From positions 30,812 through 94,811 of the forward strand of contig CAVOKP010000006.1 in assembly GCA_963696535.1 (NCBI GenBank): a stretch of 64,000 nucleotides of DNA, in the 5' to 3' direction. Made by a program: the position numbers and the translations under genes. Under the pieces are notes generated by a model, which saw only the letters and a list, made by a program, of their open reading frames with translations, searched no databases and was not told where the DNA came from. Of this stretch, positions 6,273 through 43,508 are shown piece after piece; position 1 is the stretch's first letter; each line of letters opens with the position of its first letter. The DNA comes from an uncultured Bacteroidales bacterium (GTDB lineage: Bacteria; Bacteroidota; Bacteroidia; Bacteroidales; VadinHA17).

Positions 6273-7626
6273 TATTTTATATCGATTATCCTGTGGTCGA
6301 TAAGTACAAAAAGCAGTCCGAGAAGGAATGAGTAGATAAGGTGGACCTTAACCGGGATATATTCGGTGGGCTTGATTTTCATTTTTACCCACAGATAGCC
6401 TACCAGATAAATTTTACTAATAAGGTAGACAATGAATGTGGCAAAGGCTACTCCGACGATATTGTAGCCCCATTTTATCATAAGCAGGCTGAGCGGGATA
6501 TTGAGCGCGATTTCCAGAACTGCAGCTATCAGAGTTATATGGGTCTTTTTCCGGCCCACAATTACTGTCTGCGGGAAAACAAGCCTGGGAATGACAAGCA
6601 GGGAATAAATAAGGAAGATGTCAGCGCTTTTCTGGAATTCGGGAGTGAACATCCTGGGGTACAACCATCTGGCAAAAAGCATTATAAGCATTGTGGCCGG
6701 AAAGCATATATGCATAAGGTTTTTCGATTTCGCCCTGATTTTTGCGAGCGATTCCTTCATCTGTGTCCTTGTGGAGAACTCGGGCAGCATTGCATTGCTC
6801 AGCCCGTTCGCAAGCATCAGGACAAGCGGGAACTCCTTAGCTCCATACCTGAACCATGCGAACCATCCCGGATCGCGGTAGACTGCCGATACAATAATGC
6901 CGTCGGTGTACTGTGCCGATCCGCTTATAAGAGTTGTCAATATCAGGGGAAGGCCGAGGTAGAGATGCTCTTTCATGAATTTTGCCGAGATCTTCATCTC
7001 GGTGTATCTCCTTAGCAAAATTATAAGCCAGATCCACCTTACTGCGGTTATTGCAAGCAAGTCCGTAAACCGACCAGATAAGCTCCTTCCCGAGAACAGC
7101 GGGAGCCAGGACGAGAATCAGCTGAAGCAGAGAATGTATAGATCCCGTACTGGAATATCCTGTGAGCCCGGTTATTAAGCAGATAGATGTATTCGATAAG
7201 GCAAACCGGACTGCTTAACAGCAGATAAAGAAGCAGAAGGTTAAGATATGGCACATTGCCGGAGAAATTGAAGACTGAAAAGCTGTGCTTCAATGCATGG
7301 CCGGCCACAAATATCAGAAGGCTGAAGAAGCACAGCAGCAGAAAAGCGTTGAAGATCTCCGGTGACTTTCCGGTGCCATTATCGCCCATCTTGCGGTATG
7401 TCCGGTTCCGGTGGTAGAGCGGAAGAAGTGACTGGATGATGCCGGTAACCCAGAAGAAGCTGATCAGTCCGGAAATAAACAGGAACATTTCCCACGTCCC
7501 GATATCGGCACGGGTGAGATGGATTTTTGTAAATACTATGCTGATTATCAAAAAGACAGTGAACTTCATCAGCTGAAAAAGCTGGAGCCCCGAAATATTA
7601 TCTATCAGTTTTATCTTTCTCAACAA
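6272..7626 (-). pseudogene. Wzx/MOP-superfamily polysaccharide flippase-like membrane protein, at least two frameshifts
   Basis: ORF 7048..7626 holds the N-terminal TM helices and ORF 6272..7060 the C-terminal TM helices. A third frame between about 7135 and 7060 reads a sensible TM segment, SLLQLILVLAPAVLGKELIWSVYGL, linking the two. Confidence 0.65.
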
Positions 7627-8004: not shown

Positions 8005-8062
8005 CTGAAGTACCCCCCCGGGGATCGCCATCGGAGCGAAGCGAAGATGGCAATCCATTTCA

Positions 8063-8353
8063 GGCACGGATTGCAAATCCGCGCCAGCGTAAGGGGTGGA
8101 GGCACGGATTGCAAATCCGCGCCAGCGTAAGGGGTGGAGGCACGGATTGCAAATCCGCGCCAGCGTAAGTGATGGAGGCACGGATCACAAATCCGCACCA
8201 GCTTAAGGGATGGAGGCACGGATTGCAAATCCGCGCCAGCGAGGGGGTGGAGGCACGGATTACAAATCCGCGCCAGCATATGTGATGGAGGCACGGATCC
8301 AAATCCGCACCAGCTTAAGGGATGGAGGCACGGATTGCAAATCCGCGCCAGCT
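8063..8353. repeat. Tandem array of 8 copies of a 37-38 nt unit containing a hairpin
   Basis: Units start at 8063, 8101, 8139, 8177, 8215, 8252, 8290 and 8327. The core is GGCACGGATTGCAAATCCGCGCCAGCG (stem CGGATT/AATCCG). Linkers are 10-12 nt and similar to each other (TAAGGGGTGGA-like). Confidence 0.9.
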
Positions 8354-8354
8354 A

Positions 8355-11300
8355 TCAGGCAGATTTCTCCAATCTCCTGTATTTCATATAAGCAAATACC
8401 GCCAGCGAAACGAGCACTGCAACAGCCACATATACAAATACAGGCACCGGTATGGGATCACCCCCTGCATAGGAGTGCAGTCCGGTCAGATAATAGTTGA
8501 CCCCGAAATATGTCATCAGAACCGACGATATTGCAAACATCGACAACAGGTTGAAGGTGTAAATATCCTTCAGTCCCGGGATAAGCCTCGAGTGAATGAC
8601 AAAGCTGTAGACAACTATGGTTATCAGCGACCACGTTTCCTTCGGATCCCATCCCCAGTACCTTCCCCACGATTCATTTGCCCATACAGCCCCCAGGAAT
8701 GTACCTATAGTAAGCAAGTAGAGGCCCAGGGTAAGAGATTTATAGTTGATCACAACAAGCTCATCGATTGTCGCAGAAATCCTTTCAATATTCTTTTTAT
8801 CAGAAAGCAAAAGCAAAACCATCGAGATTATCGCAAGTATGGCGCCAAGGCCAAGAAATCCGTAACTGCCAGTTATTACCGAGACATGAAGCGTTAGCCA
8901 GTATGACTTCAGCACAGGCACAAGGTTGGTTATCTCAGGATCCATAAAACTCAGGTGAGCTACCATGAGCGTAAGTCCTGCAAGCACCGCTGTGGCCGAA
9001 AGGGCAAATGCCGACTTCCGGCTGAAAATGAATCCGGCCAGGAGCGTAACCCACGAAATGAATATCATCGATTCGTATCCGTTGCTCATAGGCGAATGTC
9101 CTGAAATGTACCATCTTAAACCAAGCCCGAACGTGTGGAAAACAAATCCCGCAAAAAGGATCCAGCTCAGGATTTTTACAAACAGCGGAACACTCTTCCT
9201 CCCTTTTAAAACCATGATGATAAGGCCGATGAGCATCAGAAGCCCCGTTGTTGCATAAAACGGAAAGAGGCGTTCAAAGATAATCATCCTGTAATAGAGC
9301 GATTCCGCCTTTGTTTTTGCCTCGGGAGGAAGATCGTAGCCTGAGAATCTCTTCTGGTAGTCACTGATTGAAGCTGAAATCTGATTGGCAGACCATTGTT
9401 TTTTTCCCGGAGGGCATCAGCCATTGAGTGAATTACATTGGCAAGGTAAACCGAATCCTCCCTGTTCATGGCAGTCTTCAGGGCCTCCTGCGGCGAACTC
9501 CAGTTATGAGGGTCCTTGTGGTTCGGAAAGATCTTCAGGAATGCTTCAGTATAGATCATATAGATGATATTGACCCTTTCATCAATCTTCATTATCTCCT
9601 TGTCGGCTTTTGATCTTGCCCCGGGTGATTTGGAGTATGCTTTACCCACTTCTTCCGAAAGCTTGTAAGCTCCTCCGTCAAGATCGACGAAGTCGGTGAA
9701 TGCACCATAATTGCCGTTAATCCCGAATGTTTTCTGGAGTTCACTGCTCGAAACCCTGATCAAGGGTACATCCTTCCAGTTTTCGAAATCAAGGTAAACT
9801 CCCAGAAAAACCTGCATGGAGGTCAGCCCTTCAAATTTATTTTCCCTTGTAACCTTTCTAAGGATATCATTGCTGAGGGTGAACAAAGGCTTTGTGCGCC
9901 CCTTCTGATCCTGCACCAGGATATTGCCAAATGATTCTGCAGCATCCTTCGAAGGGATAAGCCTCTGGGCATCTGCACCAATAAGTCCGGACAATAAAAA
10001 CAGGATCAGCAACACCGGTGCCTTTTTCCTCAGCGCTGAGCTCCAGAAGCCTGCATTTACAGAGTAAAAAACTGATTTCCTGTTAAGCAGTGAAAGGATA
10101 ATAAAAAGGAAAAGAAGAGCATAACCGCTATATGTGACAAGCATCCCTGCACGATCGTGATTAACTGAAAGTATCGTGCCCATCTCATCCTGATCATATG
10201 AGGACTGGTAAAAGCGGTATCCCTTGTGCTTGAGAATATTGTTCATGAATATCGTAAAAGGCTCTTCAAGGCTTTCAGCCCTGTCGATCAGGACAATATT
10301 GCTTTTATAACCCGAAGGGCTGTTTGAACCCGGGTATCTTTCAAGAACAAAGTCATTGAGCCGGAGGGAAAAGGGAAGGGATATCTCTTCGGAACCATAA
10401 CTTATTTCAAGGATTTTGCCGTCAAACCGTGCTGATGCTGATGAGTGGTACTCTGAGGCATTATCCAGTATATTGATTGTCGAAGTCTGCTCATCCCCCG
10501 AAAATACATGGAAAATGAATGAGTTAATGCCGGTGTTCTGACTGTTAGGGTCGACTGATACGGTCTTAAGCGTACCTTCCGCCTCAAGTTCCTGGGGAAC
10601 AATCATTATACCCTTCACCCTGTAGATCTGCATCGGGCTGAACTTGACGGTTTCACCCAGCCCGAACTCAAGCTTATCCCTTGTCATCATTCCTTCCTGA
10701 ACGACAGGGGATCCTGATGTCAATAAAGAAGTGAAGAGGAGTCTGTAATAATTGAAACATCATTGTTAGCCTGACTATTGAGTCCGATTGTAACACCATT
10801 GAATTCAGACGATTCGCCGCTCTTAAGCTTTATATTTTCCCTTTTAAGACTGTCGGTGGCCACAAATGAAATAACTGGCTCCCGCCAGGCGATTTGGAAA
10901 TTACCTCCGCGGCATTCGGAATAATTCTCGCAAGAACAAGCTCATATTCCTTATCTCCGGAACTGATCTTTTTTCTGTAGTTATCGGCCGAACGGGAACT
11001 CATGTAGTATTTTTGAATGTCCTTTTCAATGATGTTTCCCGATTCATCCTTCAGGGTGTAGCCCAGGTATTTGTCGCCCGAAAAGCATTTGTCCTGCTCC
11101 TCTCCCTCCCGGATATGTATCGAACCTTCCCATCCCGAATATCTTGTGATTGCCGCACCTAAGATCATTATCACGAATGAAAGATGGAAAATGAAACCTG
11201 TAAGCCTGGATTTCCTGTACAGCCTGAAGATTATAATCTGCCCTATCAGATTCACTGACAGAAGAAATAATATAAGCTCAAACCACCATGTGTCGTAAAC

Positions 11301-11426
11301 ATAATTGTAAGCTGCCGAAGATCCGTAATCGTTTTCAATGAATGTTGCAGCAGCCATTGAGGCCGCGAATATTACAAAAAGAATCCCCATAAAAACCGGG
11401 GAGAAGAGGAATTTGAAATATTTCAT
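8355..11426 (-). pseudogene. ccsBA: Fused system II cytochrome c synthase CcsBA (ResB-like plus CcsA/ResC-like), split by at least three frameshifts
   Basis: Three track ORFs make up the gene. 10830..11426 is the ResB N-terminus. 9284..10723 is the ResB body (LPFSLRLNDFVLERYPGSNSPSGYKSNIVL, KGYRFYQSSYD). 8355..9287 is CcsA with the W-rich motif WGRYWGWDPKETW. Alternate frames bridge the gaps: ...EPVISFVATDSLKRENIKLKSGESSEFNGVTIGL..., and ...QWSANQISASISDYQKRFSGYDLPPEAKTKAESLYYRMIIFERLF, which runs in frame into CcsA. Breaks are near 10880-10892, 10722-10735 and the T7 run at 9399-9405. Confidence 0.85.
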
Positions 11427-11472
11427 ATTTTTTTAATTCTGGTTGCTGGTTCTGATATCTTCGGTTTTGAAG

Positions 11473-11513
11473 AAACCCACCCCCAGCCCCTCCCGAGAGG
11501 GGAGTTTGTGGGA
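11473..11513. repeat. G/C-rich hairpin module, second copy at 27583-27613
   Basis: aaacccacccccagcccctcccgagaggggagtttgtggg. Its first 32 nt match the reverse complement of 27583-27613 at all but one position. Confidence 0.8.
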
Positions 11514-11526
11514 TTGTCTTCGGTCT

Positions 11527-12222
11527 TCATCCTTTTTCGGAGATCTGACTGAGTTTCTCCCTGTCGATGATTTTAATATACGATGACTTTGCATTGATTA
11601 TTCCCGATTCTTCCATATCACTGAGGATCCTTACAACGCTTTCCTTAACCATATTGGTCATTTCCCCCAGTTCCTGCCGTGAAAGGATCATCTCATACTC
11701 GTCGGCCTTGAAAATCTCATCTGAAAAATACAAAAGTGCTTCTGCCAGCCTGCCCGGCATCTTTTTCTGTGCAAGATTGACCATCCGGATATGCGAGCGA
11801 AGAGCTTTTGCACTTATATCTTCCACCAGGCTTTCTGCAAAATCTCCATTTATTCTGACAAGGCTCCTGAAGATGTCAAAGCTGATAAAACAAGCCTGTA
11901 GCGGGGTCAAAGCCGATACCGAGTATGCATATCTGGCATTGACATATGCACCCGGACCCATAATAAGCCGGCCGGGCAGCAATATACCCATTATGAAATT
12001 CTTTCCGTTAATTCCTTCATAATAGTTTTTTGCCATTCCGGTTGCAAGGAACAAGGCGTTGGAGGCAGGGGATCCCTGTTTTATCATAACCTCTCCCTGC
12101 CTGAATGTTGCCTCGTACCTGTTTTCGTTTACAAGATGCATCTCCTCACGAGTAAGATGCTGAAAACCTTTCCATTGCACAGGGCAGTTTTCACAATTGT
12201 CGATGGTGTTTACTTCTGACAT
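11527..12222 (-). CDS. Crp/Fnr family transcriptional regulator
   Basis: 231 aa with a cNMP-binding-type beta-roll region and a C-terminal HTH (RQELGEMTNMVKESVVRILSDMEESGII). The N-terminus has two cysteines (CENC). Confidence 0.8.
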   Translation of the reverse strand: MSEVNTIDNCENCPVQWKGFQHLTREEMHLVNENRYEATFRQGEVMIKQGSPASNALFLATGMAKNYYEGINGKNFIMGILLPGRLIMGPGAYVNARYAYSVSALTPLQACFISFDIFRSLVRINGDFAESLVEDISAKALRSHIRMVNLAQKKMPGRLAEALLYFSDEIFKADEYEMILSRQELGEMTNMVKESVVRILSDMEESGIINAKSSYIKIIDREKLSQISEKG

Positions 12223-12301
12223 ATCCCTTGAATAAAAGGAGGTTAAAAATAGAGATTCAAAGTGATAATAATAATAATGATTACAAATATCACTAATTTA
12301 A

Positions 12302-12315
12302 TTGATATATATCAC
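12302..12315. promoter_or_regulatory. FNR/CRP-type box TTGATATATATCAC (TTGAT-N4-ATCAC)
   Basis: Lies in the divergent region between the Crp/Fnr gene (start 12222) and the multiheme operon (start 12430). It matches the box at 18774-18787 at 13 of 14 positions, and the 3-nt TAA 5' flank is also shared. Confidence 0.55.
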
Positions 12316-12429
12316 TTACTTACTGTATATCTGTCAACTTTAAATGTTGCATATAGCATCCTTGCTGTTAAGAAATTAACAACTGCTTATTAGTAAATTG
12401 CATCTGAAAAAAAAATTAAAACCGATAAT

Positions 12430-13633
12430 ATGAAGAACCTGTTAAAACTATTTGCCATTTTATTCTCAGCTGCCTTTTTGTTTTCTGCATGCGAAGGTCC
12501 GATGGGCCCTGCAGGAGCTGACGGGTCTGACGGAGCAGACGGGAAGGACGGAAAAGATGCAAATGAAAACTGCAAGCTTTGTCATAACAGCACTGTTGTA
12601 CAGGCTAAAGCAATTGAGTATGAGCATTCCTTGCATTTTACAGGTGAAGCATTTGAGGAGGGGACACGAAACAACTGTGCTCCCTGCCATTCTCACCAGG
12701 GTTTCCTCGATGTGGTCACAAAAAGTACTGCGGCTACAATCGTTGTTGATCCGGCCAATGCCTCAAGATACATAAACAACTACGTTGCAAGTGCTTCAGC
12801 CCTGGCTCTGCCGGGTGCAATAAGCTGCTTCACTTGTCACAGCTCCTTACATAAGAACTATGCGTCAACTGAATTCATGCCGCTTGCAACCACTGCTGCA
12901 GTCTCAATGACGATGTGGGGCGGTGCAAAGACCATTAATTTCTCCAATAATACATCAAATCTTTGTGCCAAATGCCACCAGCCAAGGCCTGATAACGGCA
13001 TCATCAGGTGCACTGATCGACTATTCAAAACTGGTCACTGAACCTACGGTATCGTATACTCTATCATCTGTTTCATACAGGACAGGCATTCATTACGGTG
13101 CACACGGGGCAATGGCTGCCGGAGTCGGTGGAATTGAGTTCGGCTCAGGTTATACCAACTCTGCCCATACTGCAAATGCTTCGTGCACCGATTGCCATAT
13201 GGCTACACCATCGGGTCTGGCGGGAGGACATTCATTCAATGCAACCGGGAACTATGCCGGCTGCAACACCACTGGATGCCATACAACAATGAGCGCAACG
13301 AATGCAACTCTTACTGCCGCAAAGGCTGATATCACAGCCAAGATTGCCGAACTTGCCGACAAAATCAATGCCATCGGGGCAGGTCATGATATTCTTCAGA
13401 AAGATCCTTTGGACGGACAATATCATGGTAATTTTGATATATTTGATGCAGGCTCCAATCCAACAGGATATTGGAGAACAGGTGCAGGAGCTTCACCGGC
13501 TTTCCCTGCACTTACAAATGCTCAGTTCGGTGCAATCCTTAATTTCCAGCTTGTTGTTCGGGATGCGAGCACCGGTGTGCATAATTACCCTTACATCAAA
13601 AAGCTTCTTGAAAATACCATAGCAGCCATTTAA
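12430..13633 (+). pseudogene. Multiheme c-type cytochrome lipoprotein with N-terminal collagen-like G-X-Y repeat; one frameshift
   Basis: Lipobox LFSAC followed by GPM GPA GAD GSD GAD GKD GKD. Heme motifs are CKLCH, CAPCH, CFTCH, CAKCH and CTDCH, plus CNTTGCH. ORFs 12430..13041 and 12923..13633 are one gene with the frame switching near 12985-12992, just after CAKCHQPRP. Confidence 0.8.
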
Positions 13634-13653
13634 ATAATTGGTTGCGAAGAATA

Positions 13654-13684
13654 GAATGGGCGTTGCATGCAATGCCCATTTTTG
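13654..13684 (+). terminator. Hairpin plus T-run between the two + strand cytochrome genes (terminator or attenuator)
   Basis: AATGGGCGTTGCA-TGCAATGCCCATT (near-perfect palindrome) followed by TTTTG. Confidence 0.55.
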
Positions 13685-13717
13685 TTAAATTTGACTTTAC
13701 ACTATTATCCCTCTAAT

Positions 13718-15217
13718 ATGAAACTTTTTTCGTCAGGTAGAAACTGGATCTCGATAATTGGAATACTGATTGCCTCAGTCAATCTTCTAATGATCATCGT
13801 GCTTTTTGCTATTTCATCCATTTTCGATTAGAATGATACAAACCTGGGATTGTTCATTTATATCATCCTGCCTGGTTTCCTGCTGCTTGGACTTATTATG
13901 ATCCCGGCAGGAATTATAATTTCCAGGAAAAAAAGAATCGCTGAATCACAGGGTGAAAAGAGGCTTTTCCCTGCCATTGACCTTAATAATCCGAAGCATA
14001 GAAAAACATTTATTGGTTTCACAATTGCAACAGTAGTTATTCTATTTCTGTCCACCTATGGCAGCATCGAGGCATTTCATCTGACAGAATCCGTGGAGTT
14101 CTGCGGCACCCTCTGTCACAAGGTAATGGAACCCGAATACACGGCTTACCAGAATTCTCCCCATGCAAACGTTTCCTGTGTGGAGTGCCATGTGGGTAGC
14201 GGTGCATCATGGTATGTCAAATCAAAGCTCTCCGGGTTGCACCAGGTATATGCGGTTGCCACAAAAACTTATCCCTCCCCCATTGAAACTCCCCTCCATG
14301 ACCTTCGTCCGGCAAGCGAAACCTGCCAGAGATGCCACTGGCCCCAGAAATTTTATGCAAGGTCCCTTCAGACCAACAAGTATTACCTGGCAGATTCCCT
14401 TAATTCCGAATGGGATATCGTGCTTCAGATGAAGGTCGGTCCTGAATTCAGTGATCTTGGCACTACGGAAGGAATACACTGGCACATTAATCCGGATGTA
14501 AATATTGAATACATATCAGAAAACGATAAGCGTGAGTTAATAACTTACGTGAAATATACAAATAAGGCGACCGGGGAGGTTACCGTGTACCGGAATCCCG
14601 AGATTGAAATTTCTGACAGTATAATTTCTGTATCAACACCCAGGACCATGGATTGTATCGACTGTCATAACAGGCCCTCGCATAAATACAGTTCTCCACC
14701 CTCTTATTTTGATAAGGCCATGCTTACAAATGAAGTTTCCCGCGATATCCCGTTTATTAAGAGAACTGCAATGGAGATCCTCAGAAATACATTCTCCGAC
14801 AGGGACACGGCATTGATGCAGATAAAAGAGGGTATTTCAAATTACTATAAGACGGATTTCAGCGATTTCTACGAAAATAATCAGCCAAAGATTGACCAGT
14901 CAATTGCCAGTCTGCAGAATGCTTTCAGCCGTAATACTTTTCCCGGGATGAAAGTTACATATGATGTTTATCCCGATCATATCGGTCACCTGGAAGTTGA
15001 AGGCTGTTTCAGGTGTCATAATGACAATTTCACATCGGAAAACGGCAGGAGAATCACAAGGGACTGTAACCTTTGCCATACGATTATCGGCCAGGGCAGC
15101 GGAAAGCTGATGACGTATACCAACATAAAGGACACTCTTGAGTTTCAGCATCCTGTGGATATCGGAACAGTCTGGAAGGAAGCCAATTGTTCGGAGTGCC
15201 ACAGATATCTGTATTAA
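13718..15217 (+). pseudogene. NapC/NirT-type membrane-anchored multiheme cytochrome c (6 CXXCH plus CGTLCH), with an in-frame TAG at 13829-13831
   Basis: The track ORF starts at TTG 13850. The same frame upstream reads MKLFSSGRNWISIIGILIASVNLLMIIVLFAISSIFD-TAG-NDTNLGLFIYIILPGF, which gives a first TM helix before the stop and a second after it. The NapC/NirT-like signature is FCGTLCHKVMEPEYTAYQNSPHANVSCVECH. Further motifs are CQRCH, CIDCH, CFRCH, CNLCH and CSECH. Confidence 0.75.
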
Positions 15218-15220
15218 TAA

Positions 15221-15247
15221 GAAACCCGGTCGACTAAACCGGGTTTC
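15221..15247. terminator. Bidirectional terminator hairpin between convergent cytochrome operons
   Basis: GAAACCCGG-TCGACTAAA-CCGGGTTTC, an 8-bp perfect stem flanked by A and T residues. It lies between the stops at 15217 (+) and 15273 (-). Confidence 0.6.
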
Positions 15248-15272
15248 CCTTGCTCAGGTCAGCCAGAAATTT

Positions 15273-15689
15273 CTATTTCTTGAATGTGCGCATGTAGTTT
15301 ACCATGTTCCAGATATCATCGTCGGATAGTTTACCTTCGTACTTTGGCATTTCATCCCTTCCGACTTTGGTTTTGTAGAAGTGCTCCCCATCGGTCTGTT
15401 TCTGATATGCTTCTTTGGAAAAATCACCCGGGAAGGTCTTCAGGGCTCTTGCCTTTACACCATCGCCAAGGCCAGTTTTCCCATGGCACGAGGCACAGTT
15501 TTTGGTGTAGAGAGCCAATCCTGCCTTATTGCTTGCTTCTCCTGCAGCAACAGGATTCTTCATTGTTTTATAATTTTCAGGTGCATCCCATGGTTTTGGT
15601 TGTGCCTGGGCTGAAACATTCATATTCAGCACAGCAATACCTATTAGGGCAACCAATGAACTGAGAATTACTTTCTTAACATTCTTCAT
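15273..15689 (-). CDS. Class I monoheme cytochrome c, periplasmic
   Basis: 138 aa with a signal peptide, a single CASCHG motif and a distal Met region (GRDEMPKY). Confidence 0.8.
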   Translation of the reverse strand: MKNVKKVILSSLVALIGIAVLNMNVSAQAQPKPWDAPENYKTMKNPVAAGEASNKAGLALYTKNCASCHGKTGLGDGVKARALKTFPGDFSKEAYQKQTDGEHFYKTKVGRDEMPKYEGKLSDDDIWNMVNYMRTFKK

Positions 15690-15752
15690 AATCGATCTTT
15701 TTTAGTTATTACTTATGTTATGCAATTATCGTGCAATTTTTTATGACCCGCA

Positions 15753-16367
15753 TTAATGTTCTTCCGACTCATGATATCCCGTGATCATCCCGCGGAACAG
15801 CGATGTGGGCTTTGATCCGAGGGTGCATGTATAAATATGAATGACAAGGAACACCGAAACGAAGAATCCCATAGTAATATGCAGCAGGTCAGTCAGGATG
15901 AGACCGCTGACCCCGAAGACCCTGTTTATCGTTACTTCAGGGAACATAAGGCCAATGCCTGAAATAATAACAAGCGGCATGGCTACATACATTGCCAATA
16001 CGTACGAGAACTTCTGAAGGGGATTGAATTTCCGTTCCAGGGTCACCGGAAAGGGATGCTTTTCGCCCCTGAACATTCCCCATGCATAATACCTCATCTG
16101 CTTTAAAAGATCCGGCCAGAAATTTTGTTTTTCAATCTTATAGTATTTTCCGTTCCCGGTGAAGAGGTTCCCTGTTACAAAGAAAATAAAGCTGAGAGTC
16201 AGGAATGTGGCGGATAAATTATGCCATTTCACGGCTTTTTCGAAGCCGACAAGGAATTTCAAATCCTCTCCCGTGTACTGCATGCTTATGCCGGTAAGGA
16301 TAAGAATCAATACCAGGACGGCATTCAGCATATGCCAGAATCTGACCCATTTGGGATATAAATACAT
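15753..16367 (-). CDS. Membrane cytochrome b (Ni/Fe-hydrogenase / FdnI / PhsC-type, four helices)
   Basis: 204 aa with four hydrophobic helices carrying conserved-looking His residues (WVRFWHMLNAV, KWHNLSA, LLHITMGFFVSVFLVIHIY). Confidence 0.7.
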   Translation of the reverse strand: MYLYPKWVRFWHMLNAVLVLILILTGISMQYTGEDLKFLVGFEKAVKWHNLSATFLTLSFIFFVTGNLFTGNGKYYKIEKQNFWPDLLKQMRYYAWGMFRGEKHPFPVTLERKFNPLQKFSYVLAMYVAMPLVIISGIGLMFPEVTINRVFGVSGLILTDLLHITMGFFVSVFLVIHIYTCTLGSKPTSLFRGMITGYHESEEH

Positions 16368-16382
16368 GTTATCTCTATATGG

Positions 16383-17375
16383 TTAATTTTTTTTACTGAT
16401 CCTGAAAAGCAAGTGAACGGCTATACCGCACGACAGCATAATAAAAATTATGATACTCAGGTTATTAAGATATTGATTCCGGTTAGCGCCAATTACATAT
16501 GATTCATTCATTATGATCCCGTTAAAGAATCCATCTTTTCTCTGCTCCTTCGACTGAAATTTATAAAGTGAGGACATGAGCAATGAGTTCTGGGTGTGAC
16601 ACTCATTGCATGCTTTTACGGCATCCGCTTTCGGCTTGATAAGATGAGCAACAAGAATGGTATCATTCACCTTGGTATGGCATTCTATGCATCTTACACT
16701 CTTAAAATGAGCCTCCTGGTTCGGCAGCCAGTCATGAGTTGAAAGAATGCTGATTTCTTCCCTGTCGGAAAGCAAATGAAACCTGTCAAAGTCAGAGTGG
16801 CAGTTCAGACAGATATTGTTATCGTAAAGGATTGTTTCCTTAAGGTTCTCGCTGTTCCTGATACTTATCCTGTACTCATGCGGGTCATGGCATTTCCAGC
16901 ATGAGAAACCCTCCTCTTCAAGGGTAAAATGGACACTCTTCTGATATTCGGATTCTATAGTTTCAAAATTGAACCGGGCAAACATTTCATCACCCCCATG
17001 GCAGTCGATGCAGTTATAACCCTGTTCCATCCTTAGCTCCCCGGAATGCGGGAATTGAACATAATCACCTGAATGACAGTCAGTACAACTGAAGCTCTTA
17101 TGATTTGACTGATAAAAATCTTCCCGTGTTACGACTCTTTCTGAAAACATCATTGCCCTGACCTGCCGTCCGAGGTTTTCATTCGTGTATTCGTACCTGT
17201 TCTGGCCGTGACATACGAAACAGCGCTCGTTGTCCTCAAAAAATGGAGATTTAAAGAGAGTTGTGTCTATGGTACCGGATTTCAAATCCTTAAGGTCCAG
17301 TCCGGATACAAAATCAGGTCTGCCCGAAAAAACAAACAGAAAGACGATCAGATATTTCACAGAAGATGATGTCAT
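16383..17375 (-). CDS. Heptaheme c-type cytochrome with C-terminal membrane anchor
   Basis: 330 aa with a signal peptide. Heme motifs are CFVCH, CTDCH, CIDCH, CWKCH, CLNCH, CIECH and CNECH. The C-terminal TM helix is LSIIIFIMLSCGIAVHLLF. Confidence 0.85.
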   Translation of the reverse strand: MTSSSVKYLIVFLFVFSGRPDFVSGLDLKDLKSGTIDTTLFKSPFFEDNERCFVCHGQNRYEYTNENLGRQVRAMMFSERVVTREDFYQSNHKSFSCTDCHSGDYVQFPHSGELRMEQGYNCIDCHGGDEMFARFNFETIESEYQKSVHFTLEEEGFSCWKCHDPHEYRISIRNSENLKETILYDNNICLNCHSDFDRFHLLSDREEISILSTHDWLPNQEAHFKSVRCIECHTKVNDTILVAHLIKPKADAVKACNECHTQNSLLMSSLYKFQSKEQRKDGFFNGIIMNESYVIGANRNQYLNNLSIIIFIMLSCGIAVHLLFRISKKN

Positions 17376-17394
17376 CCCTTAATTAAATAAGAAA

Positions 17395-18258
17395 TCAGAA
17401 TCTCACGGTTATATTGAATCCTATTAGAAATTCACCATCGGCAAAATTATTTGTATTGAAAACAAGGTTCCGCTGGTTGATTATATCCGAATAATTGGCT
17501 GCAAATACCTGGAATGTATGGGTTGCTGTCCCTATTTCCCAACCCAGTGACAGATTGGGCTTTGGTTGTTCTTCAAGATCCTGTTTCGTCAGAAGCTGGT
17601 CATACTCAAAGATTATCGAATGCGAATCAGTTACGGACAGCCTTCCTCCTGCCGATAATCCGAAGTTCAGGTTGCTGTATTTCAGTTCGTTTGTAAATTG
17701 AGGAACTGCATTGAAATAGATCACTGAAGGTGCAACCTGGAATGAAAACTTCTCAGAGAACTTCCTGGCAAGAATAAGTTGTGTGAAATATGACAGCCTG
17801 TGGATATCCCTGTAACGTTCAACAGGTCCGAAGGCCTCCTCCTTGCGAAGGTCAATAACCAGGTTGCCATAGTATGACAGGGATACAGGCATGCTGTTAT
17901 CTTCTGTCTGCTGAAGTATCAGGTATTTCCATTGAATATCCTGAAGTTTATAATCTTTGGTGGTCCCGGCTCCAAGCATCAGCCTGTCGGTTATTCCGAA
18001 ATTGAGGCCAAGCCTTGTATTTGCTGCGCCATAGATCCCGAACAGATTATGATAGTTTTCGATCAGGCTGAAGCGGTGGTGGATCTGAAGTTCTACTCCG
18101 CCCTTCCAGGGAGTGGCAACGGTCTGGTTGTCAATAAGCGTGCCTGTTCCGAAAGTAAACCTTACCGGTTTTGATTTCTCAACAGGTTGTGCTTCCTCCT
18201 GAGCTTGTAATGAAAGCATGAAGGCTGAAAAAAGCATTAGAAAAAAAGTCTTTTTCAT
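17395..18258 (-). CDS. Outer-membrane beta-barrel protein (DUF5777-like suspected)
   Basis: 287 aa. Signal peptide ends ...SLQAQ. Amphipathic strands alternate throughout. C-terminal ...FNITVRF has the aromatic last residue typical of OMPs. Confidence 0.65.
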   Translation of the reverse strand: MKKTFFLMLFSAFMLSLQAQEEAQPVEKSKPVRFTFGTGTLIDNQTVATPWKGGVELQIHHRFSLIENYHNLFGIYGAANTRLGLNFGITDRLMLGAGTTKDYKLQDIQWKYLILQQTEDNSMPVSLSYYGNLVIDLRKEEAFGPVERYRDIHRLSYFTQLILARKFSEKFSFQVAPSVIYFNAVPQFTNELKYSNLNFGLSAGGRLSVTDSHSIIFEYDQLLTKQDLEEQPKPNLSLGWEIGTATHTFQVFAANYSDIINQRNLVFNTNNFADGEFLIGFNITVRF

Positions 18259-18286
18259 TTTATCTGGTTTAATAGGTTAATTAAGG

Positions 18287-18664
18287 TTAGTTGTTCAGGG
18301 CTCCCTGTCCGATCCACAAAAGGACAAGCTGTTTTTCCGAATCAAGCGTGAACGCAGCATGGCTTGATGAAACCATCTTTTTATAAAGCTTGCTGTCATC
18401 GGCAGGAGTTGTTACATAACCGCCTCCTGTAAGTGATGCATAGGAAAAGCCATTCCTGAGGTCCGGATTGCGTGATCCCTTATGACATGCAATGCAGTTG
18501 GTTGTGAAAATCGGCTGGATCTGGGTCTGAAACAGAACCGGCTCATCAGGATCTACCGTTTCCAGTTGGTATGCATATTTCTCACATGATGAAAACAGCA
18601 GCATACCTGCAGGAATTATCAAAGCCGCCACAATACTCCATGAAAATCTGAATATCCTTTTCAT
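18287..18664 (-). CDS. Small monoheme cytochrome c lipoprotein (PSCyt-like)
   Basis: 125 aa with lipobox LFSSC and a single heme motif in IQPIFTTNCIACHKG. Confidence 0.7.
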   Translation of the reverse strand: MKRIFRFSWSIVAALIIPAGMLLFSSCEKYAYQLETVDPDEPVLFQTQIQPIFTTNCIACHKGSRNPDLRNGFSYASLTGGGYVTTPADDSKLYKKMVSSSHAAFTLDSEKQLVLLWIGQGALNN

Positions 18665-18689
18665 TTTTCAGTTACTGTTAATAATTTCA

Positions 18690-18697
18690 CAAAGATA
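18690..18697 (-). promoter_or_regulatory. Candidate -7 box TATCTTTG for the minus-strand cytochrome operon
   Basis: The reverse strand reads TATCTTTG (TAnnTTTG) about 26 nt upstream of the ATG at 18664. Confidence 0.35.
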
Positions 18698-18773
18698 TCT
18701 GACATTACTGATTAATAACATTTTACACCCTCCAATTTTGCCTTGTGAAATATGCTGTTTATCATACAGATAA

Positions 18774-18787
18774 TTGATCTATATCAC
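18774..18787. promoter_or_regulatory. FNR/CRP-type box TTGATCTATATCAC
   Basis: Centred about 116 nt upstream of the operon start at 18664. It matches 12302-12315 at 13 of 14 positions and shares the TAA flank. Confidence 0.55.
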
Positions 18788-18877
18788 CCGTGATGGTGAT
18801 AAATACTTATTGCCATCAAAAGTAAAAAATCAAACCTATAATGTTAATCGAGTCAATCCAAATTTTGCATCAGAAGA

Positions 18878-18942
18878 GGCACGGATTGCAACCGAGTCTC
18901 GCTTTAGCGGGACGAGCTCGGCGAAGCCAAATCCGCGCCAGC
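18878..18942. repeat. Singleton of the GGCACGGATTGCAA...AAATCCGCGCCAGC hairpin with a 37-nt insertion in its loop
   Basis: ggcacggattgcaa + ccgagtctcgctttagcgggacgagctcggcgaagcc + aaatccgcgccagc. The insert can itself fold (CCGAG..CTCGG). Confidence 0.75.
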
Positions 18943-19025: not shown

Positions 19026-20804
19026 TTAAAATTTGTAAGAGTTGTCTTCTATCAGCTTGTCCGCAATTCTTCTTCTTGCATCCTTTATGTTGATGCAGCT
19101 GACTTTCGAGAGGATCTCAATCGCATTTTCGAGCACCGGCAATGATTCGGGGGATGCGAATGAGCAGACTGCATCGGTTGCCGACTTCCTCACTTTATCA
19201 GCTGTATCATAGACATTTACATCAAGGATATCCTTATAAACCGATACTGTCCCTTTTATTCCTTCCAGCTTTTCAACCCTGAGGGCAAGCGATTCTGAGA
19301 GATACGTTTCCATCATCATTTCGGTGATATTGTTCATCACCTCCTGCTCATTCAGAATTGTTTTCCCAAACTGCTTCATCGCACCATGCATGCAAATAAG
19401 GATTACTTTCTTGAAGTTCCTTATGTATCTCCTTTTTTGCTCAAAGTAAGTCTCGTCACTGGTTTTCCCGCCGGTAATCCCTTCCAGATCGCTATAAAGC
19501 TTTTCTGCTTCGCCGAAGAGGTCGAAATCTCCCTTCATTGCCCTCTTCATTGCGGTATCGGATACAAGGAGCCTGTTAATCTCGTTCGTTCCTTCGAATA
19601 TCCGGTTTATTCTGGAATCGCGGTATCCCCTTTCAACGTCCATTTCAGCCGAGTATCCCATTCCTCCGTATATCTGAACAGCCTCATCAGAAACGAAATC
19701 GAGCATTTCCGAACCAACGACCTTCAGTATAGCTGCCTCAACGGCATAATGGCTGATTGCATCGATCGCAGCCCTTTCCTTGTCGCCGCATTCAGATCTA
19801 TACTTCTCCATGAGTTCATCAATATCCCTGCTTACCCTGTAAACAGCTGATTCTGATGCAAAAAGCCGGATTATCTGTTCTGCAAGCTTGTGTTTTATTG
19901 CCCCGAATGTCGAGATGAACACCCCAAACTGTTTCCGTTCATTTGCATATTTCACCGAATCATTTATAGCCTTTTTTGCTGCCCCTATTACATTGGCGCC
20001 AAGCTTGATCCTTCCCATGTGAAGGATGCTCAGGGCTATCCTGAAACCTTCGCCTCTCTTGCCAAGAAGGTTCTCAACCGGGACTTTCACATCATTGAAA
20101 TAGATCTGGGCTGTTGAAGATCCCTTAATACCCATCTTATGTTCATCGGGTCCGATTACCACCCCGGGTGTAGTGCTTTCAATGATGAATGCGCTCAGAA
20201 CCCTGTCAGTGTCTATCTTGGCAAACACTACCAATGTGTCTGCAAATCCGGCATTTGTGATCCACATCTTCTGACCGTTGATTATGTAGTGCCTGCCATC
20301 TTCGGAAAGGGTGGCATTTGTTTTTCCCGAATTTGCATCACTGCCTGCACCTGGTTCGGTGAGGCAGTATGCCCCGATCATCTCACCCGTAGCAAGTTTT
20401 GTGACATACCGCTGCCTCTGATCCACGGTTCCATAATACATTATCGGCAGGGTGCCTATTCCGCAGTGTGCCATATATGCAACCGAAAACGAATAGCCTG
20501 CCCCGGTGGTCTCGGCAACAAGCATCTGGGTCACAAAATTCTGACCGAAACCACCGTACTCCTCAGGGATCGAAATACCCAGCATTCCAAGCTCTCCTGA
20601 TTTCTTCAGGATTGTTCTCATCAGTTCCCGGTCGCCTTTTTCGAGGGCTGCAATATTCGGATAAACCTCAGCATCCAGAAAATCCTTGCAGGTCCGGGCG
20701 ATCATTCGCTGTTCCTCATCGAATTCTTCAGGAATAAAAACATCTTTTGGTTCAATCTCACTTACAAGGAATTCTCCGCTTTTCAAGGTTTTTCTGCTTT
20801 CCAT
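19026..20804 (-). CDS. Long-form acyl-CoA dehydrogenase
   Basis: 592 aa with ACAD signatures (GAYCLTEPGAGSD, QIYGGMGY) and a C-terminal extension domain. Confidence 0.85.
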   Translation of the reverse strand: MESRKTLKSGEFLVSEIEPKDVFIPEEFDEEQRMIARTCKDFLDAEVYPNIAALEKGDRELMRTILKKSGELGMLGISIPEEYGGFGQNFVTQMLVAETTGAGYSFSVAYMAHCGIGTLPIMYYGTVDQRQRYVTKLATGEMIGAYCLTEPGAGSDANSGKTNATLSEDGRHYIINGQKMWITNAGFADTLVVFAKIDTDRVLSAFIIESTTPGVVIGPDEHKMGIKGSSTAQIYFNDVKVPVENLLGKRGEGFRIALSILHMGRIKLGANVIGAAKKAINDSVKYANERKQFGVFISTFGAIKHKLAEQIIRLFASESAVYRVSRDIDELMEKYRSECGDKERAAIDAISHYAVEAAILKVVGSEMLDFVSDEAVQIYGGMGYSAEMDVERGYRDSRINRIFEGTNEINRLLVSDTAMKRAMKGDFDLFGEAEKLYSDLEGITGGKTSDETYFEQKRRYIRNFKKVILICMHGAMKQFGKTILNEQEVMNNITEMMMETYLSESLALRVEKLEGIKGTVSVYKDILDVNVYDTADKVRKSATDAVCSFASPESLPVLENAIEILSKVSCINIKDARRRIADKLIEDNSYKF

Positions 20805-20889
20805 ATTGAGTAGTTAAAGTATTATTAATTTCTTTACCATAATTTGCCCCCAACCCCTAAAGGGGGCTTAAAAAGCATCAGCATTTGAA

Positions 20890-20915
20890 GTCCCCCTTCA
20901 GGGGGATTTAGGGGG
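20890..20915. repeat. Hairpin module GTCCCCCTTCAGGGGGATTTAGGGGG
   Basis: An inverted copy lies at 23061-23083. A related copy lies at about 27741-27766. Confidence 0.75.
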
Positions 20916-20916
20916 T

Positions 20917-22998
20917 TTAATCCATCGCCTTCACCACGAGTTCCGCAATATCCAAATTCTTAATCTCCTCTTCCCTGTTCTTGTATTTAAGTCCGTCTGT
21001 AATCATCGTCATGCAGAAGGGACATGCAGTTGCAATAACACCCGCATTTGTGGCAAGAGCCTCTTCCGTTCTTTCGATAAAGACCTCCTTGCTCCCCTTC
21101 TCAGCCTCCTTGAACATTTGTCCACCGCCTGCGCCGCAGCATAAAGCGAAGCTCCTGTTCCTGCTCATCTCAACAAAGCTGCCGGAAAGAGACCTTGCTA
21201 TTGAGCGAGGCTCGGAATAGATGCCGTTTGCCCTTCCGAGATAACAGGGATCATGGAATGTAATGCTCATTTTTTCCAGGGAATTCTTTTTAAGCTTCAG
21301 GTTTCCCTCTTCGATATTTTTATTTATAAACTGCAAATAATTAATCACTTCATAATTGCCTCCGAGATCAGGATATTCGTTCTTAAAGATATTGAAGCAG
21401 TGTGGGCATGTGGTTATTATCTTTCTTATACCGTATCCCCTGAGAATTTCGATCACCTGCATTGCCTGCATCTGGTAGAGCATTTCGTTGCCGGCTCTGC
21501 GTGCCGGATCGCCCGTGCAGGTCTCTTCACTCCCGAGTACGGCATAGCTTATTTTCAGTCTGTCGAGAATTGTGGCAAAAGCCCTTACAACCTTTTTATA
21601 TCTGTCGTCAAAGGCCCCTGCGCAACCCACCCAGAACAGGTATTCGGGCATTTCTCCACTGGCAGGCAATGATGAAAAAACCGGTATTTCAAAATCCAGG
21701 TCACGGGTCCAGTTCAATCTTTCCTCAGCCGAATACTGCCATGGAGCTCCGTTATTTTCGATATTGCTGAATACACTTTTCAGTTCACCCGGAGCTGATG
21801 CCTCTTCAAGCACAAGATAGCGCCTCATGTCGACTATAAGCGAGGGCTGATTAATGTTTACAGGACACTCCTGCGCGCAGGCGTTGCAGGTTGTGCATGC
21901 CCAGAGTTCTTCATCAGAAATGAAATCCCTTAACAATGACCGGTTGTCATTGAAATCCCTTCCGTTTTTGATCATCAGGGGGCCCTTTTCTTTCATCCTT
22001 GCCCTGAGGTCCATCATGATTTTGCGGGGAGAAAGCTTCTTTCCCGTAATATTTGCCGGACAGACCGAGGTGCATCTACCGCATTCGGTACAGGAGAGGG
22101 AGTCGAAATAGTTCTTCCATGAGGCATCCTCCGCATCCCTTATACCAAACCTTCCGGGGGGAGTCTCGGCAGGCGCAGCATTAAAAGCAGTTTCGGGATT
22201 GAGCATCATCCTCACCTCACTGGTAATGTTATCCATATTTGCAAGCTTGCCAAGAGGTTCAAGCCGTGAAAGAAAGACGTTGGGGACCGACATGAAAACA
22301 TGGAAATGCTTGGAATACGGAAGATAGTTGGCGAAAACAAATATTGTAAGAATATGGGTCCACCATGAAATATCGAACATCAGCCTGAACCCTTCAGGAG
22401 ACATCCCTTTGAAAAACCCGGCCAGAATCGTGCTTACGGGATAAGCGCCTGCCATATCTCCTCCGGAATGCACCATATTTCCGGCATAACCTGTGTTCAT
22501 TGCAAGAAGGGAAATCATCAAAAGCAGAATCAGTGAAAGGGAGATGTTGGCATCAATATGGGATTTCTTCTTCATCTCGATTCCTTCAAACCGCCTGATA
22601 TGTCCGAAGATCCTTCTTACAAGAAAAATTACAATTGAAATCGCGACAAGCATTGCAAATATGTCGCCGGAAGCGATTATGAAATTGTAAACCGGTCCGA
22701 GGAATCGGAGCGACCTTTCTGTTCCTGTCAGGCCATCAATTACCATTTCGATGCTTCCGATCAGAATAACGCAAAAGCCCCAGAAGACTAATGCATGAAA
22801 GAAACCTATCACCGGCCTCCGGAATATCTTTGTCTGTCCGAATGCAACCTGCATCATCAGGTTAAACCGTTTTCCGAAATCCCTAACTGGAAATGCAGGC
22901 CTTGTAAATCTGAAGAATTTAATGAGCCGGTTAACTGTATAACCGAAAACGGCAATCGTTATAAGAAGTGTAACCGTGAATATCAGATGTTTTAGCAT
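20917..22998 (-). CDS. Membrane-bound Fe-S oxidoreductase (b-type TM domain, 2x[4Fe-4S], CCG domains); candidate ETF:menaquinone oxidoreductase
   Basis: 693 aa. The N-terminus has multiple TM helices. Ferredoxin motifs are CTECGRCTSVCP and CTTCNACAQECP. The C-terminus has HdrD/GlpC-like Cys-rich CCG regions. It sits directly beside etfAB and an ACAD. Confidence 0.75.
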   Translation of the reverse strand: MLKHLIFTVTLLITIAVFGYTVNRLIKFFRFTRPAFPVRDFGKRFNLMMQVAFGQTKIFRRPVIGFFHALVFWGFCVILIGSIEMVIDGLTGTERSLRFLGPVYNFIIASGDIFAMLVAISIVIFLVRRIFGHIRRFEGIEMKKKSHIDANISLSLILLLMISLLAMNTGYAGNMVHSGGDMAGAYPVSTILAGFFKGMSPEGFRLMFDISWWTHILTIFVFANYLPYSKHFHVFMSVPNVFLSRLEPLGKLANMDNITSEVRMMLNPETAFNAAPAETPPGRFGIRDAEDASWKNYFDSLSCTECGRCTSVCPANITGKKLSPRKIMMDLRARMKEKGPLMIKNGRDFNDNRSLLRDFISDEELWACTTCNACAQECPVNINQPSLIVDMRRYLVLEEASAPGELKSVFSNIENNGAPWQYSAEERLNWTRDLDFEIPVFSSLPASGEMPEYLFWVGCAGAFDDRYKKVVRAFATILDRLKISYAVLGSEETCTGDPARRAGNEMLYQMQAMQVIEILRGYGIRKIITTCPHCFNIFKNEYPDLGGNYEVINYLQFINKNIEEGNLKLKKNSLEKMSITFHDPCYLGRANGIYSEPRSIARSLSGSFVEMSRNRSFALCCGAGGGQMFKEAEKGSKEVFIERTEEALATNAGVIATACPFCMTMITDGLKYKNREEEIKNLDIAELVVKAMD

Positions 22999-23060
22999 AG
23001 TCGGTTATTCAGCTAATTTTGAAACCTCTAAGTTCAAATTTCATTCCTTTGTAAAATCCA

Positions 23061-23083
23061 CCCCTAAATCCCCTGAAGGGGAC
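23061..23083. repeat. Hairpin module CCCCTAAATCCCCTGAAGGGGAC (inverted copy of 20890-20915)
   Basis: The sequence is the same as the other copy except for homopolymer run lengths. A second hairpin, CCTGCCCTGAC..GTCAGGGGGGCAGG, follows at about 23117-23147. Confidence 0.75.
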
Positions 23084-23162
23084 TTTTATTTCAGGAATTT
23101 TTGAACCCCCTTTAGGCCTGCCCTGACCGAAGTGTCAGGGGGGCAGGGGGCAAAACCTGCAA

Positions 23163-24131: not shown

Positions 24132-24187
24132 ATTTTATTCTTTTAAAGAAGTTAAAAGTTAAATCTGTTATCTTGCGATTACAATCA

Positions 24188-24251
24188 TTTCGGATTTCGG
24201 AATTCGGATTTCGGATTTCAAATCCGCAATCCACAATCCGCAATCCGCAAT
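24188..24251. repeat. Periodic-arm hairpin (TTTCGGA)n / (AATCCGC)n
   Basis: tttcggatttcggaattcggatttcggattt-c-aaatccgcaatccacaatccgcaatccgcaat. It belongs to the same family as 30756-30820, in the opposite orientation. Confidence 0.85.
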
Positions 24252-24254
24252 ACT

Positions 24255-43419: not shown

Positions 43420-43508
43420 AAACGACACACGACGCACGACAAGCGACTCATGGTGCTACATAAAACTTGATAATTGTTTTTCTTCCTGCACCGTTTCCCG
43501 GGCTTCGT

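Follow-up and report, generated by a model that had tools for sequence, protein, structure and literature searches.

Organization of the locus

The window analysed here is a stretch of 64,000 nt from an uncultured Bacteroidales bacterium of the VadinHA17 lineage (assembly GCA_963696535.1, contig CAVOKP010000006.1, positions 30,812–94,811). Between positions 8355 and 18790 it carries an island of c-type cytochrome genes, together with genes for a cytochrome b, a small outer-membrane β-barrel, a cytochrome c maturase and a Crp/Fnr-family regulator. An earlier interpretation, made from the letters and their open reading frames (ORFs) and referred to below as the sequence-only reading, had proposed that the island encodes a trans-envelope electron conduit, in which an ImcH-like module and a split CbcL-like module feed a barrel and lipoprotein cytochromes. 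The features of the island, in window coordinates, are as follows.

8355–11426, minus strand: ccsBA, fused ResB/CcsA cytochrome c maturase; Pfam matches ResB and Cytochrom_C_asm (8355–10723); present as ORF pieces 10830–11426, 9284–10723 and 8355–9287, minus strand
11527–12222, minus strand: Crp/Fnr-family regulator; PF00027 and PF13545
12303–12314: box of FNR/CRP type, TGATATATATCA, in the intergenic region of crp and the hexaheme lipoprotein gene
12430–13633, plus strand: hexaheme lipoprotein cytochrome with LFSAC lipobox; five CXXCH and one CX4CH (CNTTGCH); frameshifted
13653–13682, plus strand: terminator-like hairpin downstream of the hexaheme lipoprotein gene
13718–15217, plus strand: ImcH-like NapC/NirT heptaheme cytochrome, 499 codons; three transmembrane helices, CGTLCH and six CXXCH
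15273–15689, minus strand: periplasmic class I monoheme cytochrome c, 138 amino acids (aa), CASCH; PF13442 and PF00034
15753–16367, minus strand: CbcB-like four-helix cytochrome b, 204 aa; PF01292, E 1.7e-23
16383–17375, minus strand: CbcA-like heptaheme cytochrome c, 330 aa, with a membrane helix at its C-terminus; seven CXXCH
17395–18258, minus strand: DUF5777 outer-membrane β-barrel with signal peptide and C-terminal Phe; PF19089
18287–18664, minus strand: PSCyt1-like monoheme lipoprotein, 125 aa, with LFSSC lipobox, CIACH and C-terminal WIGQGALNN
18775–18786: box of FNR/CRP type (coding strand: TGATATAGATCA), ∼120 nt ahead of the barrel operon

The five c-type cytochrome genes hold 22 heme motifs, the number counted in the sequence-only reading: 20 in-frame CXXCH, CNTTGCH and CGTLCH. 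Outside the island, 53.6 kb of the window contain five CXXCH in total over six reading frames. Domain assignments that had been guessed from the letters were borne out by Pfam (PF01292; PF19089, which is DUF5777; PF03264, NapC/NirT; the Crp domains; ResB and Cytochrom_C_asm). The earlier topology also agrees with a hydropathy scan of the cluster proteins: there are LFSAC and LFSSC lipoboxes, the 138-aa cytochrome carries a signal peptide, and the 499-aa protein has three helices at its N-terminus, the heptaheme one at its C-terminus. The gene inventory stands in so far as all the genes are present; three of them (ccsBA, hexaheme lipoprotein and ImcH-like) are not intact ORFs in this copy.

Conservation of the cluster in uncultured Bacteroidales

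Relatives were sought by scanning species-representative genomes with a close alignment, and the best 80 of 170 loci were kept. The genome of the window is not one of these GTDB representatives (best match 95%), and a search for the exact sequence of the window's barrel gave nothing. All 80 are in metagenome-assembled genomes (MAGs), labelled nearly always Bacteroidales, Bacteroidota or Rikenellaceae; in the counts that follow, the denominator is the number of loci long enough to judge the component in question. Close homologues of the barrel, at 76–97% identity, occur in many metagenomes.

Conservation of the gene neighbourhood had been proposed as a check, and over the 80 related loci the core of barrel and cytochromes proved near-invariant. 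The 125-aa lipoprotein cytochrome lies directly upstream of the barrel at 79 of 79 loci; the heptaheme cytochrome is present at 77/79, the cytochrome b at 69/71 and the class I cytochrome c at 56/58. The hexaheme lipoprotein (44/49) and the Crp regulator (41/48) are also usual, while the ImcH-like gene is optional in the clade (9 of 49 loci). The core gene set is kept as well in a clade whose barrel is only 57–59% identical to that of the window (L084, L085). The barrel family keeps close company with c-type cytochromes; the opposite outcome, a barrel found mainly beside non-cytochrome genes, had been named beforehand as one that would count against a conduit. The absence of a catalytic reductase, noted earlier for the island, holds throughout: no catalytic reductase gene lies within the cluster at any related locus. 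The island is a lesion-bearing copy of a cluster which is conserved in uncultured Bacteroidales and has no catalytic reductase; we consider it close to an even proposition, if slightly short of one, that this cluster forms a Crp/Fnr-controlled respiratory branch.

The L084/L085 clade differs in one further respect. There, the genes for the class I cytochrome and for the multiheme lipoprotein are separated by HmuY-like genes and a TonB-dependent receptor gene (L084, 13194–17702; L085, 13373–17903), and one of the HmuY-like genes carries a type IX secretion system (T9SS) tail. The arrangement is a hint that heme uptake is connected with the cytochrome cluster.

Inner-membrane quinol modules

The 499-aa protein agrees in all published features with the ImcH family, whose members are ∼495–519 aa long, with three N-terminal transmembrane helices, a CX3CH motif by the membrane domain and six CXXCH, and are homologous to the NapC/NirT/NrfH quinol dehydrogenases (PMC6295460). 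Its helices span residues 13–31, 44–62 and 99–117, and CGTLCH is at residue 129, twelve residues past helix 3, in addition to the six CXXCH. The protein matches PF03264 at 35.5 bits, above the cut-off, the NrfH model at E 3.6e-15 and the NrfH structure 2j7a at E 4.6e-5. ImcH homologues in Bacteroidota are already on record.

The heptaheme and cytochrome b genes follow one another on the minus strand with a 15-nt gap, a pairing kept in 69 of 71 loci. In 74 sequences the heptaheme has, besides its seven CXXCH, seven further invariant His, enough for seven bis-His hemes; its C-terminal helix (306–324) contains H321, which is invariant in the same sequences. In the cytochrome b, H12, H49, H163 and H177 are invariant, and the protein scores 170 bits against the NCBIfam model for thiosulphate-reductase (PhsC-type) cytochrome b, below the cut-off of 204 bits. 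A PDB sequence search gave no match for the cytochrome b and marginal matches only for the heptaheme and the lipoprotein cytochromes. In Geobacter, CbcBA is a quinol oxidase, and the authors of that work note ‘thiosulfate reductase-like’ homologues in Bacteroidetes and name Prolixibacter, Labilibaculum and further Marinilabiliales among the organisms with cbcBA. Given the seven hemes, the C-terminal helix with its invariant His and the thiosulphate-reductase-like b subunit, CbcBA is a nearer analogue than a split CbcL, and the pair is better described as a CbcBA-like module of quinol-oxidase type. Of the two quinol modules in the sequence-only reading, the ImcH-like one is upheld by its features, and the second is to be renamed.

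A third type of quinol module occurs in the clade. At 27 of 59 loci, the cytochrome b and class I cytochrome genes are separated by an insert that encodes an iron–sulphur (FeS) protein (Fer4_11, with a twin-arginine-like leader) and NrfD (for example L001, 3112–6295; L002, 12563–15756), and at 25 of 59 a 289-aa membrane protein with a signal peptide accompanies these two. The window is of the type that has ImcH and no FeS–NrfD genes. A window-specific 3.2-kb deletion of the FeS/NrfD/289-aa genes was considered and rejected, since 32 of 59 loci also lack them, and their absence is a common natural variant.

The hexaheme lipoprotein

The hexaheme lipoprotein family matches PF22113 (MtrC/MtrF domain II/IV) and PF14522 (cytochrome c7). 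Its six heme motifs and six further His are invariant in 100 sequences; one additional His for each motif argues for bis-His electron-transfer hemes, with no open catalytic site evident. Neither a CXXCK motif nor a significant match to PF02335 was found in this protein. The structure model is of middling quality (predicted local distance difference test, pLDDT, 76.7), and its best fold match, to OcwA of Thermincola, is weak (E 0.075, TM-score 0.26). Further fold matches, to NrfA enzymes (E >1) and to MccA, are non-significant. The C-terminal helical region contains a GVHNYPY motif, which may be reminiscent of NrfA-type enzymes.

Directly after the lipobox Cys, at 12496–12558, the gene encodes seven collagen-like G-X-Y triplets, GPMGPAGADGSDGADGKDGKD, which are kept in relatives. 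This run could be a stalk or a trimerization segment.

The DUF5777 barrel and its small cytochromes

The barrel matches PF19089 over its whole length (E 1.9e-69, 234 bits, profile positions 1–247 of 247). No other protein of the cluster is as well conserved: it has 97% identity to its L001 counterpart as compared with 68–92% for the others, and H61, H153 and H247 are invariant. The AlphaFold2 model (pLDDT 84.5, predicted TM-score 0.80) has 12 strands, and the nearest solved folds, at TM-scores of ∼0.5, are FapF, NanC, KdgM, Tsx and OmpG, channels of 12–14 strands. The sequence-only reading had set the barrel beside porin–cytochrome complexes. A barrel of the modelled size appears too small to enclose a cytochrome, and the constant partners are not multihemes but two monoheme cytochromes, the PSCyt1-like lipoprotein and the class I cytochrome c, the latter of His/Met type with an invariant Met114. 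If the model is right, the barrel cannot sheath a cytochrome as MtrB-type porins do; more likely, it keeps the two small cytochromes aligned with each other, or is itself the site of a bound cofactor, like a split Cyc2 cytochrome–porin.

Clustered at 50% identity, the DUF5777 family falls into ∼1200 groups, and its members for the most part stand alone, at a length of ∼290 aa; one member of 615 aa (P0131) is a tandem duplication of the barrel. Five distant members were checked for their contexts. One contig was too short to show neighbours, and in all four informative contexts a homologue of the small PSCyt1-like lipoprotein lies beside the barrel or one gene away.

L089: barrel 36% identical to that of the window; small cytochrome directly downstream; P0234 is a class I cytochrome c fused to a barrel
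L091: barrel 33% identical; small cytochrome directly upstream; DHOR di-heme protein and phosphate-type porin nearby
L092/L093: barrel 33% identical; small cytochrome one gene upstream, with a YceI gene in between
L094: barrel 35% identical; small cytochrome directly upstream; molybdenum-cofactor genes around

The cytochrome domain of P0234 is 40% identical to the class I cytochrome of the window (E 1e-32). Directly upstream of this fusion gene, at L089 5457–6245, is a gene for a T9SS-secreted Reeler-domain protein with a CALCH motif.

Regulatory sites

Boxes of FNR/CRP type (TGAT-N4-ATCA) precede both operons. The box of the barrel operon, at about −122, recurs in 49 of 78 loci, where 0.024 would be expected per 260 nt. 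The regulator encoded in the island belongs to the Crp/Fnr superfamily by its domains, and specific Crp/Fnr models score far below their cut-offs; near the N-terminus it has only C10 and C13, with one later Cys, where FNR proper has an N-terminal four-Cys cluster for the [4Fe-4S] oxygen sensor.

The motif AAATTGCACGATAATTG just upstream of the class I cytochrome gene (15721–15736) is conserved in L001 and L002, which makes a separate promoter for this gene probable. Neither this motif elsewhere in the window nor the intergenic motif TTGCACGATAATTGCA upstream of the gene shows significant repetition.

State of this copy

In the window the hexaheme lipoprotein gene is split into two ORFs, 12430–13041 and 12923–13633, because it has one T more at 12990 than four relatives have; with this T removed it encodes a protein of 400 aa with 95% identity to P0375. 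The ImcH-like gene has an in-frame TAG at 13829–13831 where relatives have a Lys codon, and its product is otherwise 96% identical to the intact 499-aa protein of L086, the closest relative (89% DNA identity to the window), which was used for the comparison of substitution rates. In ccsBA there are three 1-nt deletions, near 10875, 10707 and 9393, giving three ORFs and four frame segments: the L008 orthologue is a single open frame of 1039 codons, and it matches window frames −3, −2, −1 and −3 in turn. Both the ResB and the CcsA domain are detected, and there is no single intact CcsBA protein. In all there are six lesions, five single-base indels and one nonsense codon, between 7.1 and 13.9 kb. 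No lesions were found in the genes at 19–29 kb that were compared with relatives. Four overlapping ORF pairs elsewhere in the window were considered as possible frameshifts and rejected, each pair being two complete genes.

The only lesion detected outside the island is in the gene that directly adjoins it, a flippase-like polysaccharide-synthesis gene (6275–7623), which is frameshifted into pieces of 192 and 262 aa as compared with 458 aa in relatives.

The ratio of non-synonymous to synonymous substitution rates (dN/dS) against L086 is 0.04 for both broken cytochrome genes, which indicates that the lesions are either very recent or errors of consensus or assembly. One account of them, which concerns the state of this copy and not its function, is that the island has been newly inactivated in this genome: loss of ccsBA would abolish cytochrome c maturation, and the hexaheme lipoprotein and ImcH-like genes would be pseudogenes. 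In its favour, all six lesions fall within 7.1–13.9 kb, the genes at 19–29 kb and the four suspect ORF pairs are intact, and the TAG is a substitution rather than a homopolymer indel. Nevertheless, the low dN/dS means that any inactivation would be very recent, the remaining five cluster genes are intact, and the 1-base deletions near short base runs (one of them by A7) resemble long-read assembly errors. A locally poor consensus beside the 38-nt repeat array described below could yield the same clustering. On balance we lean somewhat against a newly dead copy.

Repeats and neighbouring genes

The repeat array occupies 8062–8352, reaching from a tRNA-His gene almost up to the 3′ end of ccsA, and consists of 7.7 tandem copies of a 38-nt unit, AGGCACGGATTGCAAATCCGCGCCAGCGTAAGGGATGG, each with a GGATT/AATCC hairpin core. 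The opposite flank of the island bears one partial copy, at 18922–18942, upstream of the barrel operon. An Rfam scan found the tRNA-His only and no match for the 38-nt repeat. Elsewhere, an intergenic perfect tandem repeat (43508–43653) has 10.4 copies of a 14-nt unit, TGTGTCGTGTGCCT.

Beside the island, at 19026–25004, are genes for a FadE-type acyl-CoA dehydrogenase, a 693-aa membrane FeS/CCG oxidoreductase, EtfA and EtfB, a neighbourhood common to relatives; this set looks like an input of electrons from fatty acids to the quinone pool. Outside the island, at 39765–40160 and 40174–40542, a gene for a further small lipoprotein with a heme motif (ITSC lipobox, CLGCH) is convergent with one for a small multi-helix membrane protein.

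The proposed electron route and its alternatives

We believe that the most likely function of the cluster, with a probability of about 0.45, is an outward respiratory electron route to an acceptor at or beyond the outer membrane. The CbcBA-type pair (heptaheme, 16383–17375; cytochrome b, 15753–16367) would oxidize menaquinol at the inner membrane, with the ImcH-type heptaheme (13718–15217) acting in parallel in this lineage. Electrons would pass to the periplasmic class I monoheme cytochrome (15273–15689), which would dock on an outer-membrane module made of the barrel (17395–18258) and the PSCyt1-type lipoprotein (18287–18664). The all-bis-His hexaheme lipoprotein (12430–13633) would also take electrons, and together these proteins may reduce the acceptor.

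Several points weigh against this route. Three of its genes, ccsBA among them, are interrupted in the window, and all carriers of the cluster are uncultured. Gene content, conservation, heme-ligand patterns, barrel size, the cytochrome–barrel fusion and the FNR-type boxes are observations, whereas which way the electrons flow, where the lipoproteins sit and whether the outer membrane is crossed at all are inferred; a surface position of either lipoprotein is presumed. The likeness of the heptaheme, the cytochrome b and the 499-aa protein to CbcA, CbcB and ImcH was drawn from published descriptions and shared features rather than from alignment with the Geobacter sequences. A 12-strand barrel cannot house a heme protein, and no trans-membrane heme chain for crossing the outer membrane is evident in the cluster. 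Class I cytochromes of the His/Met type are usually high-potential, a poor fit to a low-potential chain of CbcBA type. Finally, the pair of barrel and small cytochrome also occurs with no quinol oxidase or multiheme nearby, as beside YceI or among molybdenum-cofactor genes, so that its role is perhaps wider than respiration.

Three other explanations were considered. The cluster might be a periplasmic chain, respiratory or detoxifying, for a soluble oxidant, with the quinol oxidases and the class I cytochrome feeding the hexaheme as a terminal reductase of the OcwA/NrfA superfamily and the DUF5777 barrel admitting the oxidant through the outer membrane as a substrate channel. The nearest folds of the barrel (NanC, KdgM, Tsx, OmpG and FapF) are indeed small channels for solutes or polypeptides, control by Crp/Fnr is typical of anaerobic reductase operons, and His/Met class I cytochromes are usual donors to periplasmic reductases. 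The only fold matches of the hexaheme are to OcwA and, non-significantly, to NrfA nitrite reductases and MccA, and its GVHNYPY region may point the same way. Even the best of these matches is weak. Candidate distal His for all six motifs, invariant across the 100 sequences, leave no open site in evidence, and the protein offers neither CXXCK nor a significant PF02335 match. A channel role would in addition leave the cytochrome–barrel fusion and the constant small-cytochrome neighbour unaccounted for, and we think this explanation unlikely. Another possibility is a non-respiratory role for the pair at the outer membrane, in which barrel and small cytochrome would serve, for example, reductive acquisition of iron or heme, or redox sensing, fed in Bacteroidales by the neighbouring quinol oxidases. 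The distant contexts fit such a non-respiratory role, since the pair is found there with no quinol oxidase (by YceI, by DHOR and the phosphate-type porin, and inside molybdenum-cofactor genes), as do the HmuY-like and TonB-dependent receptor genes within the cluster of L084 and L085. Two or three parallel quinol oxidases and a hexaheme, however, suggest a high-flux respiratory role in the clade, and control is by an FNR-type box (no search was made for iron-regulator sites); we give this role only a slim chance.

The same genes could also carry electrons inwards. The lipoprotein and barrel would then act as Cyc2 does, with Fe(II), a cathode or a partner cell as the electron source, and the class I cytochrome would hand the electrons on to the CbcBA-like complex for menaquinone reduction or to an oxidase encoded elsewhere. 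A monoheme with a modest barrel, and the natural fusion of the two, mirror the architecture of Cyc2, and His/Met class I carriers are typical of the chains of Fe(II) oxidizers. In the literature, nevertheless, every ImcH homologue reported so far belongs to an Fe(III) reducer, and CbcBA of Geobacter works as a quinol oxidase. The cluster has no linked genes for an oxidase or for carbon fixation, and many of the metagenome sources look anoxic by name (fens, sediments, reactors, digesters), a weak indication in the same direction. Inward flow seems to us very improbable.

Novelty and significance

The sequence-only reading took such a chain to be uncharacterized in the phylum. Homologues of cbcBA and imcH in Bacteroidetes had already been noted in the literature, and cytochrome-based electron routes across the envelope are known as a kind. 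No description of this cluster was found in the literature on DUF5777, DMER64 cytochromes or extracellular electron transfer in Bacteroidota, and none of the papers searched mentions the DUF5777 family. What is undescribed there is the full cluster, the invariant pairing of DUF5777 with a PSCyt1-like cytochrome and the cytochrome–barrel fusion.

A more general proposal may be drawn from these observations, although we regard it as doubtful: that DUF5777 and the PSCyt1-type lipoprotein, served by the class I cytochrome, constitute an unrecognized and widespread outer-membrane electron port of the Bacteroidota, wired in anaerobic Bacteroidales to quinol oxidases of the CbcBA, ImcH or NrfCD type and to the hexaheme lipoprotein. 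If it were true, outer-membrane electron handling would be achieved with a 12-strand barrel in place of a large porin, by a module far smaller than known porin–cytochrome complexes, and extracellular respiration would extend to abundant polymer-degrading Bacteroidales. To judge by the metagenome names, the carrier MAGs come from fens, lake and river sediments, reactors and digesters, settings in which Bacteroidales are as a rule regarded as fermenters. If they could discharge respiratory electrons to minerals, humics, electrodes or partner cells, models of carbon and electron flow there would change. DUF5777 gains a testable role.

Comparison with known systems

At the inner membrane the closest parallel is CbcBA of Geobacter sulfurreducens (GSU0593/0594), an inner-membrane bc-type menaquinol oxidase. 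Both systems have a seven-heme c subunit with a conserved His in a C-terminal helix and a separate four-helix diheme b subunit annotated as thiosulphate-reductase-like, with the genes in the order c then b. They differ in that the window cluster has Crp/Fnr-type boxes whereas the Geobacter system has the sigma-54 regulator BccR, and in that the window pair shares its transcript with the genes for an outer-membrane barrel and for two monoheme cytochromes. The 499-aa protein parallels Geobacter ImcH (GSU3259) in its three N-terminal helices, the CX3CH by the third helix, the six CXXCH and NrfH-like first hemes; unlike ImcH, it is encoded by a gene that only some members of the clade possess, and the window copy has an in-frame TAG. 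Modules of NrfCD type (Hmc, Nhc, alternative complex III and Geobacter Cbc4) have their counterpart in the FeS/NrfD/289-aa set of relatives, whereas the window shows a clean junction in its place, like the other loci without the set.

The hexaheme lipoprotein stands nearest to the OcwA/NrfA superfamily, multiheme proteins at the end of a chain and its best, if weak, structural match; it departs from them in having six hemes, each with a candidate distal His, and no CXXCK.

For the outer membrane, porin–cytochrome conduits (MtrCAB, MtoAB/PioAB, Geobacter Pcc and Ext) share with the window the grouping of an outer-membrane barrel gene with genes for quinol oxidases and for c-type cytochromes, both periplasmic and lipoprotein. 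MtrB-type barrels have roughly 20–26 strands, whereas the barrel here has 12 strands and ∼250 residues, and its constant partners are monohemes rather than a multiheme inside the barrel. Cyc2 of Fe(II) oxidizers, set beside the window proteins by architecture, likewise combines a monoheme cytochrome with a modest barrel, and a natural cytochrome–DUF5777 fusion exists as well. In P0234, however, a complete class I cytochrome sits on a linker, whereas Cyc2 has an N-terminal heme motif inside its barrel, for which ∼16 strands have been proposed. The window barrel is smaller than this, and the flow of electrons through it is likely to run in the opposite direction.

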